A program made the position numbers and the translations under genes. The notes beneath the pieces are model-generated. The model searched no databases, was not told where the DNA came from, and was given only the letters and a program-made list of their open reading frames with translations. This document shows, piece by piece, positions 1-8,823 of a stretch of DNA of 24,215 nucleotides. Each line of letters starts with the position of its first letter. Position 1 is the first letter of the stretch. The DNA is from a virus (Duplodnaviria; Caudoviricetes): positions 1 through 24,215 of IMG/VR virus record IMGVR_UViG_3300042342_001925; one strand, 5' to 3'.

Positions 1-1
1 A

Positions 2-160
2 GATGGACGACCCGTAGAGCCCGACGTTGATGGACTATGGGAGGGCTCGCTGTACGTCTGTGCAGGTTGCTTCTCTATCTACAACATCTACACATTCGAA
101 GAAGTGGGCAAGGCTTCAGACATCGCAATTCAGATGCTCAACGTTGGGGTTGCTCGATGA
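2..160 (+). CDS. 3' end of hypothetical protein (partial, begins before window)
   Basis: Frame 2 is open from the window start (DGRPVEPDVDGLWEGSLYVCAGCFSIY...GVAR*). Its TGA at 158-160 overlaps the next ATG (ATGA). Confidence 0.65.
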   Translation, partial: DGRPVEPDVDGLWEGSLYVCAGCFSIYNIYTFEEVGKASDIAIQMLNVGVAR

Positions 161-396
161 CAACCAACAGTGAGTTACTTGACATCTCTGAGATTCTGTA
201 CGACAACTACTACACGTTGGGCGTCACTGGAGCAGATGCGATTGTGAACATCTACGACGAGATTGACGCTGGCTATTTTGCTGACCAGATAGTGGAGTGG
301 GGAATTGACATCCATGAACTATTTACCGCAATTGCCATGATGCGCAAGCGTCTAGTGCACGAGAAGAAATTATTGGTCACGAGGTACCCAACTTAA
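157..396 (+). CDS. hypothetical acidic protein (79 aa)
   Basis: Part of track ORF 37..396. The ATG at 157 is coupled to the upstream stop, so it is preferred over 37. Confidence 0.7.
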   Translation: MTTNSELLDISEILYDNYYTLGVTGADAIVNIYDEIDAGYFADQIVEWGIDIHELFTAIAMMRKRLVHEKKLLVTRYPT

Positions 397-525
397 GAAT
401 TGGATTTCTGAGCCCCGCCCGCCCTGAACACATGCGCGACCCGGGGCTCGCAGCTGCCCTGCTCCGCTCGCACGTCCTGGCCACCAGGCAGGCCGACACA
501 AGAAGGGGAGTCCCATCTTTCACGA

Positions 526-538
526 CGGTGGTGGAAGA
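526..538 (+). repeat. dispersed 13-bp motif copy 1 (CGGTGGTGGAAGA)
   Basis: Exact copy, intergenic. Shares the 17-mer GACGGTGGTGGAAGAGG with 5911-5927. Confidence 0.85.
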
Positions 539-560
539 GGGTAGGGTTATTTGTGTTGAC

Positions 561-569
561 TGGTAGGAT
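561..569 (+). promoter_or_regulatory. extended -10 promoter (TGgTAGGAT)
   Basis: TGn-TANNNT upstream of SD GAAAGGG (584-590) and ATG 597. An alternative TTCACG-N17-TAGGGT lies at 519-547. Confidence 0.45.
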
Positions 570-596
570 GGTACTTTACTAACGAAAGGGAAATCC

Positions 597-764
597 ATGA
601 ATGAATGTTTTACGTGTCAAGTTAAATTAGACAAAGATTGGAACCTTGCACCAATAGGGACTAGCCCTGATGGGAAGATGCGCATTTATGAAGATGACGT
701 TTCACTCTGCGACGATTGCTATGACACATGGTGCACAAAATACAATATTCAACCAATGGATTAA
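597..764 (+). CDS. small Zn-ribbon-like protein (55 aa), not in ORF track
   Basis: MNECFTCQ...LCDDCYDTWCTKYNIQPMD* has two CxxC pairs and a strong SD (GAAAGGG). Its stop runs into the SD of the next gene. Confidence 0.75.
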   Translation: MNECFTCQVKLDKDWNLAPIGTSPDGKMRIYEDDVSLCDDCYDTWCTKYNIQPMD

Positions 765-774
765 GGAATAAATT

Positions 775-1281
775 ATGCCTATCGCAACACTCACAAATGA
801 GACTCTACAAATTGAGATAAAAGATAAATGGGAAAATGCGTCAAAGCTTTATGGCAGTACGTTTTCAATTCCAACAGAAGAAAAGTTTTCCTTGAACGAA
901 TATGAACGAGCAATGCATATTTTGTTAGTTTGGAAAAGAGAGGGACAAAAAGGAAACCCCACTCGCATGATGCGCACCTATGGGGTGAACGAATCTTCGG
1001 TGGCGGAAGTGATAAATAATTGGTGTGACATGAGCATCACAGAAGAAGATATTGCTGAAATAAAAACTGAGAAGCGCGCAGATAAATATGATTCATTTAT
1101 TGACTGGACTAAAGACAAAATATTTGAGCAATACACAACAGAAGCGCTAGTTGAAGTTGCTGGATTCTCCTACCCAACTGTTCTCAAGTTCCTTCAGGAC
1201 TCACCTAACTTCAAGAAACTCAAGAAGGGTCTGTGGGAAATTCGAGACGCCAAAGCAGACCGAGAGGCCGACAAGAAATAG
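775..1281 (+). CDS. hypothetical protein, possible C-terminal winged-helix DNA-binding domain
   Basis: SD TAAGGA. The C-terminus YTTEALVEVAGFSYPTVLKFL...FKKLKKGLWEI resembles an HTH plus wing. Confidence 0.7.
   Translation: MPIATLTNETLQIEIKDKWENASKLYGSTFSIPTEEKFSLNEYERAMHILLVWKREGQKGNPTRMMRTYGVNESSVAEVINNWCDMSITEEDIAEIKTEKRADKYDSFIDWTKDKIFEQYTTEALVEVAGFSYPTVLKFLQDSPNFKKLKKGLWEIRDAKADREADKK
998..1010 (+). repeat. dispersed 13-bp motif copy 2 (CGGTGGCGGAAGT)
   Basis: 11/13 match to the major form, inside CDS 775..1281. Confidence 0.6.
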
Positions 1282-1302
1282 TGTAGGTTTATTTGTGCAG
1301 GT

Positions 1303-1311
1303 TGATATAGT
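1303..1311 (+). promoter_or_regulatory. extended -10 promoter (TGaTATAGT) for the AAA/VWA pair
   Basis: TGn-TATAGT in the 75-bp intergenic gap; SD GAAAGGGG at 1340-1347. Confidence 0.5.
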
Positions 1312-1356
1312 GACAATGTAATAATTACTAATCGCTCTTGAAAGGGGCAACAACAA

Positions 1357-2082
1357 ATGGAAACTACTACCGCTATTAAATTACCTGATTGCTGGCAAGC
1401 TTTTGAAGATTGCTTGAATGCAGGCATCGACCGAATCATCTTGTTTGGACCATCAGGTATTGGCAAGACGTTCGCAGGATTAAATATGGGCAACGTCTCG
1501 GGAGGCGCACATCGTCTCGTATGTACTGAGGACATGACCAATGCCGACGTTACTGGAGCATTCATGCCTAATGAGCGTGGAACATTTACATGGAACTACG
1601 GTTCTGCTGTAAAGGCTTGGGAGGGCAATGGCATTACTGGTGGTCGCCTCATCGTTGACGAAGTAGACAAAGCCAGTGGAGACGTTTTCGCAACGCTCCT
1701 CTCAATGCTTGACTCTCCCGAATCAGCAACATGGGAAAATCCTGAGAACGGTCGTATTCATCGTCCAAAAGATGGATTCTCCGCAGTCATGACTACCAAC
1801 ATTGAGAACATGGAAGAACTGCCAACAGCATTGGCAGACCGATTCCCAATTCGCATCCGCATCAACACTCCTCACCCCAACGCTCTGCTGGCGCTGTCTC
1901 CTGACTTGCGCAAGTATGCAGTACGTATGGCTGACGCTGGCGAACGTCGTATCTCATTGCGAGCATTCATGGCTTTTGACAAACTGCGTACAGCGTACGG
2001 AGACGAGAAAGCATCTGTCCTTACTTTTGGAAATCGTTCAGAATCTATCCTTGACGCAATTGCTGTAGACAAGGTGGCTTAA
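1357..2082 (+). CDS. MoxR/CbbQ/CobS-like AAA+ ATPase (AAA_5 type)
   Basis: Walker A GPSGIGKT, Walker B LIVDEVDK, sensor-1 MTTN, arginine finger ALADRF, sensor-2 ISLR; adjacent VWA gene. Confidence 0.92.
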   Translation: METTTAIKLPDCWQAFEDCLNAGIDRIILFGPSGIGKTFAGLNMGNVSGGAHRLVCTEDMTNADVTGAFMPNERGTFTWNYGSAVKAWEGNGITGGRLIVDEVDKASGDVFATLLSMLDSPESATWENPENGRIHRPKDGFSAVMTTNIENMEELPTALADRFPIRIRINTPHPNALLALSPDLRKYAVRMADAGERRISLRAFMAFDKLRTAYGDEKASVLTFGNRSESILDAIAVDKVA

Positions 2083-2083
2083 C

Positions 2084-3583
2084 GTGAAAACATTTTCAAC
2101 TGAGCCTGAAATGCTTGGTCGGAAAGATGTTCCTCATGGGCGATGGGTTGTAGACAACTGCAACCCTCGTCGTGGGGAGCCTTCCACCAACATCGTAGAC
2201 CGAGAAATGAAAGCACCAAATCACGACACTGAACTCGCAAGAGTAATCAGGGCGCACGAAATGATGCATGCAAAAGTATCTCCTGCTGAGTCGATGATTG
2301 ACTGGATAAATCGCAAAATCGCTACTCAGGAATCACTGGTTGTAGCAGAAGAATTGCGTGTTAACTATCTGTGTCAAAAGGCTGGCTTCAACGTCAAGGC
2401 CAATTTGGTTGACGGTGGAGAAATGGCAGACGGGGAAAGAATCGCCGCTACTAACGACTGGAAGAGCGCTGTCCACATGGCTATCGCAACTGCTGGAACT
2501 GCTTCTAACAAAGCTTTTCTTACTGGAGTGCGTCGCCACAATAAGAAGTGGGCAGAAATACTTGCTGACATTAGTAAGCGAGCAGTCAAAGAATTAAAAA
2601 AAGTTGACAAGTATGGCAACCTCGGTGCTACCGATGTTGATTCACGAACAGGCTTGCACCCTAGGGGATTCTCCAATACTGAGCGAATCGCAGAATGGGT
2701 TGACAGGCTTGCCTCAATTACTCCCGAACAAGAAGAGGAAGCAGAAAAAGCAGAAAGCGCTTCATCTTCCAGTACTGGTGAATCATCAGAAGAGCAACCT
2801 CAGGAAAAGAGGGGGCGTGGGCGCCCTCGCAAAGCAGGTGGTCACTCAAATGTTGGAACAAGTGGCGCTGGTAGCGCAACTGGAAACCCATACAAGGGCA
2901 TTACTCCTAGCAGTGGTCACTACGGAACCATAGGTTCATGGGGAGAACTGCGAATCAAGCGTTGCGAGATGCCAAAGCACACCAAGGGCAACATTGGCAA
3001 AAAGCGTACTGCGTCAAATATGGGTCGCTCGCCACGTCGTATTCACCGACTCCTCACCGACCCTGAGAAGAGAATCTTTGACAAGGTCACAAGAGGAACT
3101 GGTGGCGTCGTCGTCATTGACGGTTCAGGCTCCATGTCTTTCACTCACGACCAAATACGTCGTATTGTTGAGAACGCACCAGGAGCAACTGTGGCTGTCT
3201 ACACCGACAAGGGTGACTCAAAGACAAATATGTGGATTGTCGCAGACAAGGGCAAGATGGTTAGTGAACTTCCTGACTTTGGTCAAGGTAACGGTGTTGA
3301 CTTTCCTGCTCTTGAATGGGCAGTGAAGAATCGTCAACGCTCATCTTCCCCGATTGTTTGGGTGACAGATGGTGGCGTCTGTCCTGAAAATGGTTCTTAC
3401 AACAGCGTCCTTGCGATGCAGTGCTTGAACTTTTGCAGGAAACACAACATCATCATTCTTCCCTATGTTGAAGAGGCTGTCGCTGAACTCAAGAAAATGA
3501 AGAATGGCAACAAGGGTAAGTCACAATACCCACCACTAATACGTGATGCATACAAGGAGTTAATGGGGACACCTTTGGTGTAG
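2084..3583 (+). CDS. VWA-domain MoxR partner with N-terminal HExxH motif and central AT-hook
   Basis: HEMMH (2255-2269), acidic/Ser linker, KRGRGRPRK (2807-2833), MIDAS DGSGS (3119-3133), VWVTDG; GTG start 1 nt after the AAA stop. Confidence 0.85.
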   Translation: MKTFSTEPEMLGRKDVPHGRWVVDNCNPRRGEPSTNIVDREMKAPNHDTELARVIRAHEMMHAKVSPAESMIDWINRKIATQESLVVAEELRVNYLCQKAGFNVKANLVDGGEMADGERIAATNDWKSAVHMAIATAGTASNKAFLTGVRRHNKKWAEILADISKRAVKELKKVDKYGNLGATDVDSRTGLHPRGFSNTERIAEWVDRLASITPEQEEEAEKAESASSSSTGESSEEQPQEKRGRGRPRKAGGHSNVGTSGAGSATGNPYKGITPSSGHYGTIGSWGELRIKRCEMPKHTKGNIGKKRTASNMGRSPRRIHRLLTDPEKRIFDKVTRGTGGVVVIDGSGSMSFTHDQIRRIVENAPGATVAVYTDKGDSKTNMWIVADKGKMVSELPDFGQGNGVDFPALEWAVKNRQRSSSPIVWVTDGGVCPENGSYNSVLAMQCLNFCRKHNIIILPYVEEAVAELKKMKNGNKGKSQYPPLIRDAYKELMGTPLV

Positions 3584-3589
3584 AGTTAC

Positions 3590-3735
3590 GGTGTTCGCCT
3601 CGCTCATCTCAAATTCCCCCCTTTCGTGGATGAGCGAGGAACACCAGTAGACTCGCTAGTGGCCTCGTATCCGCTAGCGCTCTACCGGTGGATTCGCCGG
3701 CGTCACTATGGAGTTAGGACGCCGGCGAATTTTTC
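3590..3735 (+). ncRNA. candidate structured small RNA or 3' UTR element: three hairpins, the first with a C-rich loop
   Basis: Stem 3590-3608/3629-3645 with loop TCAAATTCCCCCCTTTCGTG; stem 3647-3662/3671-3685 with a U-G pair favouring the + strand; terminator 3692-3735; GGTG-TAGAGT -10 at 3577-3586. Confidence 0.6.
3692..3735 (+). terminator. intrinsic terminator
   Basis: Perfect 13-bp stem ATTCGCCGGCGTC (3692-3704) / GACGCCGGCGAAT (3718-3730) followed by TTTTCTATT. Confidence 0.8.
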
Positions 3736-3761
3736 TATTACGTCTACTGAAAAGGAATCAA

Positions 3762-3917
3762 ATGTCTCGAAAAGGTAAGGCCAAGACATTCAAGCTTGTC
3801 CCAGTGGAGGACAGGGAGAAGCATGAGTCTCGCATCGACTCAATGCGAGGGCACCCCACTTCACACAAACCCAGGCCGACACTGCGCCTGGCGAGCCCTA
3901 GCGCGCAGAGCGATTAA
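3762..3917 (+). CDS. small basic hypothetical protein (51 aa)
   Basis: SD AAAGGA precedes ATG 3762. The track start at 3708 lies inside the terminator. Confidence 0.6.
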   Translation: MSRKGKAKTFKLVPVEDREKHESRIDSMRGHPTSHKPRPTLRLASPSAQSD

Positions 3918-4218
3918 AGGCGCGCTCGACCATCCAGGCCGCGCGTGCAAAAATAATTATTTTTAGCGCGTCCCAGTAACCGAGAGAACCGCTTGTAATC
4001 GAGCGGTGGTGGAAGACATCGATTATCAACATGAGGAAAGCTGCTGTGATGGCAGAAATTAAAATAGTAATTATTACGCCGGCCACAAACGCTCCAGCTT
4101 TTTCAGCTCCAGCTGCGCGCTTTTCTTCCTTAAATTTCTTTTCTAAAATATCGAGCTCCGACGAGAAAGGGTCATAACTATTATTACTTATCGAGTTCTT
4201 GGGAATTTTCTTAGACAT
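3898..4218 (-). CDS. hypothetical membrane protein
   Basis: Hydrophobic AFVAGVIITILISAITAAFLMLII and a second segment; overlaps the upstream minus-strand gene by 8 nt. Confidence 0.75.
   Translation of the reverse strand: MSKKIPKNSISNNSYDPFSSELDILEKKFKEEKRAAGAEKAGAFVAGVIITILISAITAAFLMLIIDVFHHRSITSGSLGYWDALKIIIFARAAWMVERAFNRSAR
4004..4016 (+). repeat. dispersed 13-bp motif copy 3 (CGGTGGTGGAAGA)
   Basis: Exact copy lying antisense within a minus-strand CDS. Confidence 0.8.
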
Positions 4219-4582
4219 TTTTTTCCTTTACAATCTGGTGTATTCTCTGGCGACTTAATTCGAACTCATCAGCTATTTGACGAAGAGAATGTCCGGCCGC
4301 GCGCATCTTTAAAATATTACTATTTCTATTTTTATCAGTTGTTGGGCCCGGCTTCAAGGGACCCCATGTCCAACCTGGAATACTTTCAAGCTCCAGAGCT
4401 CTGCTGCTAGAAATTTGATTTTTCTTTTTTCTTTGCCTGGCGTACCCGACCCAGGCTCCCAGAAATATTTCTTTTCCATTAATTACCTCAACATGAACTG
4501 CAGGAATAAGGCAATGACCTTCTCTTTTAGAAAATTCTATAATCGCATCCTTGTACATATCAAACCTAGAGCTATTGTCCAT
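4211..4582 (-). CDS. helicase-associated (HA) domain fused to a sigma70 region-4-like HTH
   Basis: F..REGH..IP...LG.WV...R...LE.IPGW.W is the HA-domain pattern. SLRQIADEFELSRQRIHQI is a region-4-type HTH. TATTAT lies 7 nt before the ATG. Confidence 0.8.
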   Translation of the reverse strand: MDNSSRFDMYKDAIIEFSKREGHCLIPAVHVEVINGKEIFLGAWVGYARQRKKKNQISSSRALELESIPGWTWGPLKPGPTTDKNRNSNILKMRAAGHSLRQIADEFELSRQRIHQIVKEKNV

Positions 4583-4639
4583 AGTCGAGATAATAATTCA
4601 TTTTGTCATAATTACCAGAAACTAAGAAATATTAATTTT

Positions 4640-5161
4640 ATGCGGGAGGACAAATTCCCACTCGAGGTTGTTAAATTTCCGACTCGTGCTAAAATAACAA
4701 AAGTTGCTGCCCCCAGAGAGAATGGCGGAAAGAGAGAACCCGTGCTATTTAATGACGACAACAAAGGCGACATCGCCGAGAACATGATTAGCGCCATGGA
4801 AAAGGTCTACGACAAAAATCCAGCCTTAGCCAGGAGCCTGTCCGAGGAGCTGAAGTCTGTCACTGATAATACAGAAAACATTCTAATGGTAGGAACCGAC
4901 GGCGAATACGCGGTAACCATAATTTGGGTGCCCAATAGCGTGCTGGGCAAAGGCGAGACAATGATGCTGCTGCCATCTGCCGACAAGATATCTATCCTGG
5001 CAGCTGTTTCGGTAGATTATATTGAAAAACAAAATTTATTGTGCAAAACACTCGAAGACGCCGGCCTCGAAGAGCTCGCGGACGAGATGTGGGAGCGGTT
5101 GATGAACAACCTCCTGACAAAAGCTGTTGCGATGCATGAAGCAGACCCGCAGCTGATATAA
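4640..5161 (+). CDS. hypothetical protein (173 aa)
   Basis: Part of track ORF 4415..5161. ATG 4640 avoids overlap with the divergent gene. Confidence 0.7.
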   Translation: MREDKFPLEVVKFPTRAKITKVAAPRENGGKREPVLFNDDNKGDIAENMISAMEKVYDKNPALARSLSEELKSVTDNTENILMVGTDGEYAVTIIWVPNSVLGKGETMMLLPSADKISILAAVSVDYIEKQNLLCKTLEDAGLEELADEMWERLMNNLLTKAVAMHEADPQLI

Positions 5162-5177
5162 CGTACAGACACATTCA

Positions 5178-5190
5178 CGGTGGCGGAAGA
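5178..5190 (+). repeat. dispersed 13-bp motif copy 4 (CGGTGGCGGAAGA)
   Basis: 12/13 match, intergenic. Part of hairpin GGCGG-AAGAC-CCGCC, followed by an AT-rich direct repeat. Confidence 0.75.
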
Positions 5191-5253
5191 CCCGCCGGCG
5201 TTTAATTTAATTAACTATTTTATTTAATTAACAGGCCGCGGCCAGGAGGAATA

Positions 5254-5622
5254 ATGAAAAAGTACCTAATCCTAATTGCAGGTGTTATCGCAACAATCTT
5301 TGGAATCGGAACACTCATTTGGTGGGCCACTGACGTTTTCGCGCTTTTTTCAACAAACCAGTACACCGGACGCATGCGTTCATTTGATGTGGAATATTGG
5401 AATGCCATCGCGGGAGCAACAATTGTTGTTATAGGCAGCGGAATAATTAAAGGAATAAATGTTTTTATTACGCACCGAGCTCTCGACTCATGGAAAGAAG
5501 AGACTGAAGACATCCTGAGCGACGACTTGACCAGAAAAGTATTCGAGCAGCTCAAAGAGCAGCAAAATACAAAGACATCAGGCGCCGGCCACAAACATAT
5601 ATTTCCAGTTGATTTTGATTAA
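5254..5622 (+). CDS. hypothetical membrane protein (2 TM)
   Basis: SD GGAGGA; two hydrophobic segments. Confidence 0.8.
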   Translation: MKKYLILIAGVIATIFGIGTLIWWATDVFALFSTNQYTGRMRSFDVEYWNAIAGATIVVIGSGIIKGINVFITHRALDSWKEETEDILSDDLTRKVFEQLKEQQNTKTSGAGHKHIFPVDFD

Positions 5623-5699
5623 TCATTCTCCGGCAAGAAGAACGACGAAAAAAATCATTTTTTAATTATTATTTATCGACCCGCGGGATGGACCCGGGT

Positions 5700-5805
5700 A
5701 AATAAAAATCCCGGGGAGCTCAAAGCGCGCCACCTACAAAACGCGCCCAAGCTCTAACCCGGGATTTTACCTGTAAGGGGAAAGGGGTACCCTTATAGGC
5801 AATAT
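5700..5805 (-). ncRNA. candidate small RNA: C-rich-loop hairpin plus long terminator hairpin
   Basis: Minus-strand stem 5799-5790/5779-5770 with loop UACCCCUUUC; long stem 5768-5742/5729-5705 ending in UUUUUAUUU; promoter at 5839-5812; no ORF found. Confidence 0.55.
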
Positions 5806-5811
5806 AAAAGT

Positions 5812-5839
5812 ACCATAGCCCCGCGCCACGACGACGCAA
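5812..5839 (-). promoter_or_regulatory. leftward sigma-70-type promoter TTGCGT-N16-TATGGT
   Basis: Points into the hairpin cluster at 5700-5800. Confidence 0.5.
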
Positions 5840-5908
5840 CTCCGGATAGATTTATATAGATACCTCCATCAGCTGCGAGAAAAAAAATAAAAAAACTTCT
5901 CTTGTAGG

Positions 5909-5937
5909 TTGACGGTGGTGGAAGAGGCTGCTATGGT
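5909..5937 (+). promoter_or_regulatory. rightward promoter TTGACG-N17-TATGGT overlapped by 13-bp motif copy 5 (5913-5925)
   Basis: Near-consensus -35/-10 with an upstream A-tract (5880-5895, UP-element-like). The exact motif spans the end of the -35 and the spacer. Confidence 0.7.
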
Positions 5938-6163
5938 GACGTCACAACTTAGTGGGCCCAACAAACACTTAGTTCCTACGACCGAGAAATCCTTAGGTCT
6001 AGTTTGGGCTGCTCCTTTTCCGAGTTCTATCGCAAAAGGTTCCCCCAGACCCCCTCCCAAGGGGGGTATTCAGAAAGACTATCTTCTGTCTTATTTATTC
6101 TCGTTACCTATCCAATAATACTTCTGTTGCTTTTTCATTCAGATGAATGTAGTATCAGTATTT

Positions 6164-6529
6164 ATGGGAAGAGGAAAAAGTATTTCAAGCAACGAGAAAA
6201 TAGAGAACTCAAAAAAAGTTCCGGAAGAACAAATAATTGAAGTATTCGATTTTTGGGTTCAGACCTTTAAGAAGAGAGTCTGCGCGCTAGACAAAAAGAG
6301 ATACATAGCTATAGGTAACGCTATTCACTTTTTCGGTGTAGATAACTGCAAAGACGCAATTATTGGTTGTACCCACTCAGACTTTCACATGGGCCGCAAC
6401 GCATCTCAAAAGGTGTATAACGAAATCGAGCTCATCTTGAGAGATGCTGAACACGTAGAAAGATTTCTCGGTTTCCTACCCGATGGTAATTCTACGGTGG
6501 TGGAAGAGCGCAACAAAGAACCATTCTGA
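6164..6529 (+). CDS. phage replication initiator / replisome-organizer C-terminal-like domain protein
   Basis: Pattern EVFDFW...L..KR...I...G......AI......FHMGRN...YNEIELILRD.E.VERFL, with a helicase loader/inhibitor directly downstream. Start is 6164 (TAGTAT 8 nt upstream) or 6143. Confidence 0.65.
   Translation: MGRGKSISSNEKIENSKKVPEEQIIEVFDFWVQTFKKRVCALDKKRYIAIGNAIHFFGVDNCKDAIIGCTHSDFHMGRNASQKVYNEIELILRDAEHVERFLGFLPDGNSTVVEERNKEPF
6495..6507 (+). repeat. dispersed 13-bp motif copy 6 (CGGTGGTGGAAGA)
   Basis: Exact copy at the 3' end of the initiator-like CDS. Confidence 0.8.
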
Positions 6530-6566
6530 TTCAGATAAATCTATATGAAAGAGCCGGCGCGAAACT

Positions 6567-7025
6567 ATGACTAAAGAAGAACTTAAGGATTTAGTAGACC
6601 AGGTCTATGGAACGTACAACAACGTGCTGTACGAGATGGACAAGAGGACAATCTACGCAGCATGGTATGCGCTGCTAGAGGACCTCGACTACGAAGAGAC
6701 TCGCAAGGTGTTCCTAAACATAGCCGTATACAGCAAGTTCATGCCAAGGCCAGGGGACATCAGGCGCGCAACAATAGATACCCAAACAGAAACAACCCCA
6801 CATTTAGATGGGTATTCCGCTTGGGGTATTTTTATGACCATACAAAAAGATGCCAATTTTGGTACCCAAACAGAAAAACCCAGACCAGAAGCACTGCAAA
6901 AAACTTTGGAGCACCTAGGTGACTCTGCTTTCAGCATGCACACGAACGGAGACCGTGAGGCTTTTTTGCGCGTCTACGAGAAAGTAGTAGAAGAACTTGA
7001 CAGACACAAATACAAAATTTCCTGA
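6567..7025 (+). CDS. replicative helicase loader/inhibitor (SPP1 G39P-like)
   Basis: MTKEE...Y..N......AWYALLEDLDYEE...FMPRPGDIR...AW pattern; lies downstream of the initiator-like gene. Confidence 0.72.
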   Translation: MTKEELKDLVDQVYGTYNNVLYEMDKRTIYAAWYALLEDLDYEETRKVFLNIAVYSKFMPRPGDIRRATIDTQTETTPHLDGYSAWGIFMTIQKDANFGTQTEKPRPEALQKTLEHLGDSAFSMHTNGDREAFLRVYEKVVEELDRHKYKIS

Positions 7026-7026
7026 A

Positions 7027-7272
7027 ATGCCGGACAGGCGCAAGCATTTCAAGCATTTCGACCCTCTTTCAGTAACTATGGAAGAAATGATGGCCCTACG
7101 CCGAGAGTCTTTTGGTCTTCGCGCAGAGCTAGATGAAGCCAATTATCAGCGAGCCAAAGCCGAGAAAGCGCTATCAGTCGTCATGTCATCTAAAACATGG
7201 CGCACTGGCAGGGTTGTTTTGTCCCCAGCACGCTTAATCAGGAAGTACTTCAACCTTTTGAGGCGCTCATGA
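7027..7272 (+). CDS. small coiled-coil protein ending in an SxxWR...P.R amphipathic motif
   Basis: ATG 1 nt after the loader stop; LRAELDEANYQRAKAEKAL followed by SSKTWRTGRVVLSPARLIRK. Confidence 0.65.
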   Translation: MPDRRKHFKHFDPLSVTMEEMMALRRESFGLRAELDEANYQRAKAEKALSVVMSSKTWRTGRVVLSPARLIRKYFNLLRRS

Positions 7273-7484
7273 CTATGGAATATCAGGAAGTAATCATCAG
7301 CGCCGGCGAAATAGACAATGGCCTATGCAAGTCTTGTAGGTACTGGCGCTCATTTGATAACACCTGGGGTTCTTGCCATCGGCGTGCTCCCCGTCCTTTT
7401 GTAGGTGGTTCTTCTGGGTATATTGATGTTGCTTGGCCCCAAACTAGAGATATTGACTTCTGTGGAGAATGGGGTCCTAAGTGA
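7269..7484 (+). CDS. small Cys-rich (4-Cys) phage protein
   Basis: CKSCRYW...GSCHRRAP...WP......FCGEW; ATGA coupling at 7269. Confidence 0.75.
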   Translation: MTMEYQEVIISAGEIDNGLCKSCRYWRSFDNTWGSCHRRAPRPFVGGSSGYIDVAWPQTRDIDFCGEWGPK

Positions 7485-7606
7485 ATATTCTATTTACCAT
7501 CGTCTGCATTGCTCTGATTTGGAAGGTTTCCTACTCTAATCTCCCATTTGGTGCTCGACTTGTCATAGTTTCTGTACTAGCTTTGCTCTCAGCAACACTC
7601 TTTTGA
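7481..7606 (+). CDS. 41-aa two-helix membrane peptide, not in ORF track
   Basis: GTGA overlap; MNILFTIVCIALIWKVSYSNLPFGARLVIVSVLALLSATLF* fills the gap. Confidence 0.6.
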   Translation: MNILFTIVCIALIWKVSYSNLPFGARLVIVSVLALLSATLF

Positions 7607-7628
7607 GTATTCACAAACAGGAGCAATA

Positions 7629-7799
7629 ATGAAAAGAAACCCAGGTCGCCCAGTAACCTTGTCGGATAAGCCATTTTCGACGCTTACGCTTCGTGTGTCT
7701 AGGGAATTCAAGCAGCAATTGATTGGTCAGGCTAATGCGGTAGACCTTACCTTGACCGACTATCTAATTGCTTTAGTTGAACGAGATACTGTTTCTTAA
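7629..7799 (+). CDS. ribbon-helix-helix DNA-binding protein (56 aa), not in ORF track
   Basis: SD AGGAG; MKRNPGRP...TLTLRVSREFKQQLIGQANAVDLTLTDYLIALV fits an RHH. Confidence 0.78.
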   Translation: MKRNPGRPVTLSDKPFSTLTLRVSREFKQQLIGQANAVDLTLTDYLIALVERDTVS

Positions 7800-7802
7800 T
7801 AA

Positions 7803-8147
7803 ATGGTTCGGAAATATGAAAAATCACGTTTCCCGAATAGGTACAGCGATATCCACCTGCGTGTACTTGGCAGTCAGAAGAATGAAATAATTGACTATGC
7901 CAAGGCGCAGGGGTTATCCGTTAATCAGTTGGTCATATATGCGGTCCTTGATTTCATTAGGAATCAGAAAGGCATACCGTCTCCAGGGCCATCTCAGTTC
8001 TCTATCCCTACGATGGAAGAGACGTTAACCGCCTATATGAGAGGCGAAGGCATCCTTACTCCATGCGGAAAGATGCAATGCGACATGAAGTTAGTAGATG
8101 TTTCTGGCATGCAGTTCTGTAAGCACTGCAATATAAGGGTTATCTAA
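7803..8147 (+). CDS. ribbon-helix-helix protein with C-terminal Cys4 finger
   Basis: IHLRVLGSQKNEIIDYAKAQGLSVNQLVIYAV (Arc/HicB-C-like), then PCGKMQC...FCKHC. Confidence 0.78.
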   Translation: MVRKYEKSRFPNRYSDIHLRVLGSQKNEIIDYAKAQGLSVNQLVIYAVLDFIRNQKGIPSPGPSQFSIPTMEETLTAYMRGEGILTPCGKMQCDMKLVDVSGMQFCKHCNIRVI

Positions 8148-8230
8148 TCGTCTAGGGACTTCATAGCCAGATAGATAACCATTAAGAATACGGCTATGGT
8201 TCCGGTGGCAATCATTCCAGAAGCAATCAT
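8144..8230 (-). CDS. possible 28-aa single-TM peptide coupled to whiB
   Basis: TGATG overlap with the whiB stop; MIASGMIATGTIAVFLMVIYLAMKSLDD*. Confidence 0.45.
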   Translation of the reverse strand: MIASGMIATGTIAVFLMVIYLAMKSLDD

Positions 8231-8562
8231 CAGCTACCCCACATCTGTGCGAGCGTTGGTCTAATGGGTTTAATCTTCCTTCTTCTTTGTTCTGCAGCAA
8301 GCTGTCTACTAGTAAGTCCAGCCCACACTCCATGCATATCTGCGGGTGGAAACTCCAGGGCATACTCTAAACACTCAGGTTTAACAGGACACGAAGCGCA
8401 CGTCTTTCTCGCTTCTGCAATATAAGTAATATCCTTATGTTCTTTGGGGAACATTAAATATCCAATTCCTTTACAGGCTGCTAGTTCAAACCAAGTCGAT
8501 TCACCCATATACAATTCTTTTTCTGGTTGGGAACTATTTTTTGCATTATTTTGTTGGGGCAT
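8230..8562 (-). CDS. whiB: WhiB-family Fe-S transcriptional regulator
   Basis: W...AAC...FP...A...CASCPVKPECLEYAL...HGVWAGLT...RRRK: four conserved Cys and the G-V-W-x-G turn. Confidence 0.95.
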   Translation of the reverse strand: MPQQNNAKNSSQPEKELYMGESTWFELAACKGIGYLMFPKEHKDITYIAEARKTCASCPVKPECLEYALEFPPADMHGVWAGLTSRQLAAEQRRRKIKPIRPTLAQMWGS

Positions 8563-8823
8563 TATTTTGTGCCTTTCCTACTTACGAACTATTTTGTAGG
8601 TACATTTATCTAACCACAAACAATCCCCGCAACAGTGGATTTCCCCTATGCAAATAGTAGATATTTAAACATTATGATGTTCTCTGTGTCTCTATGGCTC
8701 TCTCTAGTTATTCCTCTATGAGGTCTTAGCTAATTTGCCAATACTTCCAAACCGTTACAGCAAAAATGGGGGCGCTTTTATATAAAGCACTGTGCTTCGT
8801 TGCTTTTCCTGTAGTGTTTTGCC

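Follow-up and report, generated by a model that had tools for sequence, protein, structure and literature searches.

The presence of six copies of a 13-mer, all on the same strand, within the first 6.5 kb of a 24,215-nucleotide (nt) stretch of phage DNA (positions 1 to 24,215 of IMG/VR record IMGVR_UViG_3300042342_001925, hereafter the window) raises the question as to what such a polar repeat does. An earlier reading of the letters alone (the sequence-only reading) had likened the repeat to the stoperators of cluster A mycobacteriophages or to initiator iterons controlling an early and replication region, and had listed a Chi/KOPS-like signal and a DNA-injection signal as further options. Our analysis shows that the motif is a selected, polar and conserved DNA site that is not driven by coding and whose orientation is independent of transcription. 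The array probably acts on DNA near a chromosome end rather than on transcription, and for the act itself we tentatively prefer programmed nicking of one strand.

The window represents part of the genome of a freshwater myophage of ~150 kb that carries WhiB. A scan recovered all six copies on the + strand, four of them exact matches to CGGTGGTGGAAGA and two variants (Table 1). Within the window there are 0 copies on the - strand and 0 past 6507, and the three copies that had been noticed to extend further (526, 5913 and 6495) share the longer form ACGGTGGTGGAAGAG. Six copies were reached in 0 of 100 dinucleotide shuffles of the window (mean 0.00), and with up to 2 mismatches allowed the count is still six, against 0.42 expected. 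The k-mer check that had been proposed for the motif also bore it out: among the window's 12-mers, CGGTGGTGGAAG exceeds expectation the most under Markov models of order 3 and order 4, seen 4 times with 0.007-0.009 expected. The sequence-only reading had described copies between genes and both sense and antisense within them. Its conclusion that coding does not drive the site holds, but the antisense copy at 4004 lies in an open reading frame (ORF, 3898-4218) that may not be a real gene; we consider it doubtful because partial homologues were found in only 2 other phages (L003 and L013) among the loci compared.

Conservation was assessed in 79 loci fetched with the VWA protein of the window and oriented by its gene, a redundant set with VWA identities of 40-100%, in which genes were called with a simple in-house caller. 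Three of five metagenome matches to one 20-mer (L435-L437) were unrelated and dropped, L439 was left out, and G010, with one match, was treated as unrelated. Exact matches in the 79 loci number 162 on the + strand against 0 on the - strand and one-mismatch matches 210 against 10, with at least 3 copies in 60 of the 79; over the loci examined there are 485 distinct + sites against 2 matches on the - strand, a fixed polarity of the kind that the sequence-only reading had expected among relatives. The consensus is TGACGGTGGYGGAWRR, with information in 12-15 positions (254 distinct sites). Intergenic sites make up 331 of the 453 that could be classed (73%), although the zone that holds them is 73% coding, and the gene for a 168-aa protein that contains the copy at 998 has its copy at another codon, or none, in other lineages. 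Where copies do fall inside + genes, 79 of 107 are in one frame and 28 within the first 30 nt of the gene. Complete records carry 9-12 copies each, in a single zone of 9-24 kb (Table 1; G002, G003, G006, G008 and G009 agree). The main form is absent from 19 loci, and more distant relatives have variant words: CGGTGGCGTATA in G014, GGAGGATG in L065 and CGGTGGCGATTTC in L078. A scan of GTDB genomes for the 16-mer, covering 2 of 64 parts, gave scattered single matches.

The independence from transcription is clearest in the DNA that lies upstream of the window. Locus L438 matches L440 at 100% identity over 2950 nt, and L440 in turn shares 99.8% identity with the window, so we take L438 to be upstream DNA of the same phage. 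From 1 to 8706 its genes run on the minus strand, where 16 promoter-like elements also lie (4 more are on the + strand), yet its motif copies are all on the + strand (977, 3783, 4974, 6639 and 8901) and 4 of these 5 lie among minus-strand genes. Across the relatives, minus-strand genes flank 44 of the 485 distinct + sites on both sides, in 28 loci. Over 254 sites no -10 box is conserved at a fixed spacing downstream of the motif, which rules out a promoter, and RNA-level readings (an antiterminator, a nuclease site or a translational site) are ruled out by a polarity that ignores transcription. Two copies had been placed between -35 and -10 boxes. The pair at 5909-5937 is a sigma-70-like match in our scan, but that at 519-547 is absent from it and a promoter-like element starts at 541.

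The copies are distributed with respect to one point, a conserved element at 7005-7049 that likely represents pac and a physical chromosome end at ~7049, as judged from contig depth and contig ends. Position 7049 is where both L002 and a contig of X17 terminate, and a contig of X15 stops at 7035. Of 45 right-truncated loci, 5 (L002, L006, L011, L050 and L285), four of them from other phages, end 0-8 nt after the element core, with ~0.2 expected. The element lies after the helicase-loader gene in some subclades and after a ribbon-helix-helix (RHH) gene in others, and contig ends track it in both placements. Contig depth is about twofold higher to the left of ~7.05 kb than to the right in 4 of 4 runs from 4 studies (X15, 11-12 against 3-5.5; X17, 9-12 against 3-7; X8, 8.1 against 1-5.8; X3, ~19 on one contig, 1939-8024, against 11), and farther left, on L438, long pieces lie at ~1.1-1.5x of the right-side baseline; by the warning of the tool itself contig depth is no copy number, and the step is a hint. 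The left ends of this phage's contigs are all different. In pac-headful packaging one end is fixed, coverage is raised on one side and the other end is distributed (PMC5557969; here and below, published systems are described from the portions of the papers that we drew on). We place pac here because the halving of depth, the contig ends at the element and the variable left ends match that pattern. An end after the RHH gene, at ~8150, was considered and superseded by ~7049. A fixed long direct terminal repeat is less favoured than a pac end, since this phage's contigs share no left end and their depth tapers; a long repeat of variable length is a possible alternative. Long intergenic A/T tracts alternating with GC-rich palindromes occupy 3584-4210 and 5623-6142, the part of the window nearest this point.

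The motif respects the element as a boundary. To the right of 28 distinct elements there is 1 copy in 65 kb, while to the left there is none within 500 nt and the last copy stands ~0.55 kb away. Six further copies of the same phage lie upstream of the window, at window-equivalent positions -1616, -4985, -7247, -8912, -10103 and -12909, so that its 12 copies are 0.55, 1.1, 1.9, 3.0, 6.1, 6.5, 8.7, 12.0, 14.3, 16.0, 17.2 and 20.0 kb from 7049. Among relatives the sites are densest at 0.5-4 kb from the end. The mean gap is 0.75 kb in the proximal part (n = 227) and 2.6 kb in the distal part (n = 117). The coefficient of variation of the distal gaps is 0.39, while randomly placed sites give 0.90 and, at the lowest of 2000 draws, 0.67. 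A DNA-injection or other end-type signal thus comes closest among the options first listed, in that the array abuts what appears to be a physical end.

The reading that we tentatively prefer, while giving it somewhat less than an even chance, is that the motif marks sites of programmed single-strand nicks in virion DNA, set by a phage enzyme in the packaging-end zone; we prefer it because its testable features match the one-strand nick motifs of tf/LUZ24-like phages. A phage enzyme would nick, as in T5 and the tf/LUZ24-like phages, at a 12-15 bp word fixed to one strand and confined to 9-24 kb beside the likely pac. The nicks may ease the first DNA into the head, or they may start end-to-end recombination by a Rad52-like annealer and a PD-(D/E)XK exonuclease. 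Packaging would proceed leftward by headfuls from the likely pac at 7005-7049. Should the roughly 6-11 kb of doubled depth correspond to the first headful's redundancy, the redundant ends of the initial two or three headfuls would fall within the motif zone, and each virion would have at least two sites in its terminal redundancy.

Known nick words include TACT/RTGMC and WACTRTGAC of tf and LUZ24-like Pseudomonas phages, and nick motifs are also known from phiKMV-like phages and T5. Those of the tf/LUZ24-like phages are confined to a single strand of genomes whose arms converge, are concentrated at the capsid-attached end and often stand at gene starts (PMC3517423; PMC11780129), and the one-strand nick motifs of T5 have been known for ~50 years without an assigned function (PMC11780129). 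The array shares with these systems its single strand, some ten copies per genome, independence of gene direction, conservation among relatives with little DNA similarity, a skew to one end and a frequent place at gene starts (here 28 of 107). It differs in its 12-15 bp length, its restriction to 9-24 kb of ~150 kb, its intergenic bias and its regular spacing, and also in its carrier, an actinobacterial myophage whose genome likely ends at a pac and not in short direct repeats.

Several points weigh against nicking and against the end on which it leans. Our data are assembled contigs, which cannot show strand breaks, and a site of ~24 bits could equally be a plain protein-binding site. No nuclease was found to be restricted to motif-bearing genomes, HNH, RuvC and exonuclease genes being common to the motif-less relatives (those 47-88% complete). 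The established nick motifs have a shorter sequence, occur across most of the genome and lie in coding sequences in 88% of cases, as by chance, whereas here they are bounded and 73% intergenic. The gap counts are non-independent, coming from orthologous sites in related phages, and pac is placed from contig depth, which is no copy number, and from contig ends, which could arise through assembly branching among co-occurring relatives. The element was detected, at a score of at least 22, in only 38 of 74 loci; G004 and G007 gave no match to it and G005 a weak one, with one motif copy to its right. Other contig ends cluster near the stop of the RHH gene, where no element was seen.

The same positional evidence (the end element, the spacing and the density at 0.5-4 kb) would suit a polar protein-binding site that is not nicked and instead stops resection, or a helicase-nuclease, arriving from a chromosome end, Chi- or Ter-like with a phage-encoded reader. 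Annealing and circularisation of the redundant ends would then precede any loss of homology. We regard this as possible though rather unlikely. G004 encodes a Rad52-like annealer, a PD-(D/E)XK exonuclease and RuvC, all kept in relatives, and tyrosine and serine recombinases (PF00589, PF00239) were found in 0 of 5 complete genomes, with controls detected in 14 of 14 and 12 of 14; the same result removes a lox- or res-like site of site-specific recombination, for which these genomes hold no cognate enzyme. The ends of SPP1 circularise through their redundancy (PMC6316719) and lambda exonuclease pauses at strand-specific sequences near the genome end (PMC7496540), and the longer word, hard boundary, intergenic bias and even spacing that set the motif apart from nick motifs leave room for such a stop. 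No reader was found for it, however; a single orientation would guard one end only, the recombination genes occur in motif-less relatives too, and candidate host genomes show no enrichment of the motif. Chi/KOPS-type signals have strand-fixed polarity, turn over in position and plausibly act on DNA motors or ends. The array shares the polarity and the turnover of positions, but the 13-mer is longer and is limited to the end zone of the phage. A host signal of this type, which had been among the first suggestions, is unsupported: five actinobacterial metagenome-assembled genomes (MAGs) with VWA homologues, taken as candidate hosts, gave 4 matches to the full motif, the only form searched, against 4 for controls.

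A further possibility is that the small terminase (TerS) or the packaging motor uses the array to find pac, to commit to packaging or to choose the headful cut among evenly spaced sites, with bounded gaps that would cap overfilling. The array does go with a displaced TerS: among the 45 loci that run past the initiator, a primase and a probable TerS, assigned through matches to proteins annotated as small terminases (E 6e-6 to 5e-3), stand beside the initiator in 10 of 10 motif-less loci and in 0 of 35 motif-bearing ones, whose probable TerS gene lies ~50 kb away from the end element. On a quick VWA tree, one or two evolutionary changes account for this contrast, and in L078 TerS lies next to the end along with 4-5 copies of its variant word. 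Motif-bearing phages differ in the recognition helix of TerS but not in the motif, and contig ends show no pile-up at motif copies, a result of low power that nevertheless leads us to set aside cuts at the copies. We consider guidance of the terminase distinctly unlikely. In motif-less L058, L061, L066, L070, L074 and L078 the order after the initiator and loader is primase, probable TerS and a 105-aa gene, and in motif-bearing genomes these three lie on the far side of the early region (G004 C1:93032-95773). The likely end shares with the pac headful ends of SPP1, P22 and P1 one fixed end, a variable other end and a redundancy for circularisation (PMC5557969, PMC6316719), and the pac of SPP1 overlaps its TerS gene (PMC6316719). 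It differs from them in the distance of the probable TerS, in the long polar array at its flank and in having no site-specific recombinase. In P1, loxP lies near pac.

A replication signal, be it iterons for the initiator, sites at which a single displaced strand is primed or a one-way trap for forks next to an origin, would account for the strand-fixed polarity and for the densest copies surrounding the genes for an O-like initiator and a loader, and the 2.6 kb spacing is fragment-sized. Iterons form closely spaced arrays, whereas these copies extend over 9-24 kb with irregular gaps of hundreds to thousands of bases (means 0.75 and 2.6 kb), which makes the iteron alternative of the sequence-only reading unlikely. 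The initiator is here a C-terminal domain only and is also present in motif-less relatives, and the hard stop at the end element would be unexplained. Taken as a whole we find a role in replication quite improbable. DnaA-box-like words (TTATCCACA) are repeated in the early regions of L078, L048, L294 and L438, up to 12 times in L078.

That the strand-fixed signal, though real, has nothing to do with a genome end, with strain mixture or assembly producing both the depth step and the contig ends as artefacts, is in our view very improbable. The basis in contigs, the absence of the element from about half of the loci and the contig ends near the RHH stop all fit such artefacts, but the ~2x step recurs in 4 runs of 4 studies and the ends follow the element whether it comes after the loader or the RHH gene.

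The stoperator, or operator of a monomeric repressor in cluster A style, from which the sequence-only reading started, is largely refuted and highly improbable. The array shares with the stoperators of L5 and TipsytheTRex an asymmetric 13-mer in many, mostly intergenic copies, and a possible repressor is at hand in the 168-aa protein, which has a winged helix and a helical N-part and usually a motif copy near its gene. Stoperators, in contrast, are oriented with transcription and number >20 sites genome-wide (PMC9283540), whereas here 9-12 copies sit in one zone of a genome with no integrase, their orientation ignores transcription and no -10 box is fixed to them. The motif is near-invariant across divergent phages, while a second motif diverges from phage to phage and follows transcription; the 168-aa gene is without a copy within 10 kb in L270 and L284, where it has been relocated, and occurs in 3 of 5 motif-less records. 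That second motif, GTAGGKTTATTTGTG followed at fixed spacing by TAnnAT, precedes almost every early gene (402, 786, 2322 and 3419 in L001; on both strands of L438, as counted above). Each related phage has an unrelated promoter-like motif of its own, with 76 copies on both strands in G001, ~30 in L009 and others in L010, L013, L253, L260 and L283. From its sequence behaviour the fast-diverging element is a better candidate than the 13-mer for an operator or a phage-activated promoter.

The proteins that had been proposed as binders, namely the helix-turn-helix (HTH)-like products at 775, 4211 and 12329 or the initiator, received no specific support. The 168-aa protein, the helicase-associated (HA)-HTH protein, the RHH protein, the initiator and TerS are all present in motif-less relatives. 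A model of the 168-aa protein (predicted local distance difference score, pLDDT, 86) has a generic C-terminal winged helix (best Z 7.6, root-mean-square deviation 2.3, 58 aligned), in a structure comparison that barely covered the N-part and whose list did not include the structure of the two-domain stoperator repressor, with its HTH and Stoperator domains. It has no PDB sequence match under E 0.3 and all its scores in an atlas search are <0.9; no relative of a cluster A repressor was found for it among PDB sequences, in 50,697 phage records or by structure search. Two proteins are restricted to motif-bearing genomes among those compared, one of 161 aa (G004 C1:110912-111397, beside DUF932) and one of 187 aa (91148-91711, beside ribonucleotide reductase); neither matches a family, and the motif-bearing side of the contrast is one clade.

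Taking the geometry and the TerS arrangement together, we see a modest chance that this is a dedicated chromosome-end array: once TerS had left pac, the clade would have acquired a series of polar sites, closely set at the packaging end and evenly ~2.6 kb apart beyond it, with at least two per headful redundancy, that programs nicking or resection for circularisation. If true, this would give one-strand phage motifs, whose role has been open for ~50 years, a function tied to headful geometry. It would also follow that polar 13-mers in actinophages need not be stoperators, and the array would serve as a sequence marker for the physical end and the packaging direction of these genomes. A sharply bounded, evenly spaced one-strand array beside a likely pac is in any case a property of a widespread uncultured clade of freshwater actinophages, with motif-less sister clades as controls. 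Within the titles and abstract openings searched, subscription papers and supplements being outside this scope, no paper on the motif, the array or the clade was found, and the accessible portion of a treatment of WhiB actinophages makes no mention of motifs (PMC10914622).

Table 1. Coordinates of the motif copies, neighbouring features and motif clusters (window positions unless a genome is named)
Feature	Position	Strand	Remarks
Motif copy, exact	526..538	+	intergenic; 3 nt upstream of the promoter-like element at 541; 6.5 kb from the likely end
Motif copy, variant (..GGCGGAAGT)	998..1010	+	within the 168-aa gene, reading S-V-A-E-V
Motif copy, exact	4004..4016	+	inside the doubtful ORF; flanked by the VWA gene and by the minus-strand HA-HTH gene (its 3' end)
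Motif copy, variant (..GGCGGAAGA)	5178..5190	+	intergenic, directly after ORF 4640-5161
Motif copy, exact	5913..5925	+	intergenic; overlaps the sigma-70-like -35 box upstream of the initiator-like gene
Motif copy, exact	6495..6507	+	within the initiator-like gene, in its C-terminal tail; last copy, 554 nt before 7049
End element	7005..7049	+	A/T tracts, GC core ending 7041, then AAGCATTT; single-copy in the window and G001
Promoter-like element, GTAGGKTTATTTGTG..TAnnAT	541..570; second copy 1283-1312	+	phage-specific; follows the direction of transcription
168-aa protein gene	775..1281	+	helical N-part, C-terminal winged helix; candidate reader, no specific link
AAA_5 ATPase and VWA genes	1357..3583	+	anchor for finding relatives; spanned by the longest gap of the array
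HA and HTH protein gene	4211..4582	-	also in motif-less relatives
O-like initiator C-terminal fragment and helicase-loader-like gene	6143..7025	+	end element overlaps the loader stop
Motif cluster, G001	10242-25690		10 copies; 0-1 elsewhere in the genome
Motif cluster, G004	131801-147656		9 copies; 0-1 elsewhere in the genome
Motif clusters, G005 and G007			12 and 10 copies; 0-1 elsewhere in the genome

The phage that carries the array has complete relatives of 137-158 kb, and DNA near-identical to it is present in 20 lake metagenome runs. The window encodes a pair of AAA_5 ATPase and VWA proteins, the HA-HTH protein, the O-like initiator fragment, the loader-like protein and WhiB; no cultured phage matches the VWA or the 168-aa protein (the latter having no match in 50,697 phage records). 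We infer an actinobacterial host because WhiB is present and VWA homologues occur in MAGs of Acidimicrobiia. Three loci of this phage clade (L440, L441 and L442) were binned in MAGs labelled Thiobacillus, Poseidoniaceae and Planctomycetaceae; they are probably mis-binned and hence no evidence of host. Among the 93 of 209 ORFs scanned in G004 are genes for tail sheath, baseplate, terminase, primase-helicase, the Rad52-like annealer, the PD-(D/E)XK exonuclease, RuvC and HNH. The nearest match of the terminase is that of psiM2, at 42.5%; psiM2 reportedly packs by headfuls from a pac, for which a literature search gave no confirmation.

Some further features of G004 lie outside the array. Its early region holds three perfect palindromes of what we take to be the host-type parS consensus (C1:114844, 127911 and 130457), of which there are none in G001, and at the far edge of that region are 8 tandem CATCA-type repeats (C1:101872-102050). 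A trio of ParB-like, PAPS-reductase-like and ParB-like genes (C1:44413-47259) is kept in all relatives compared and is a possible DNA-modification module. Two giant ORFs of ~3,900 and ~3,500 aa (C1:55537-67374 and 69034-79506) are found between the portal and capsid genes, and G001 is similar.

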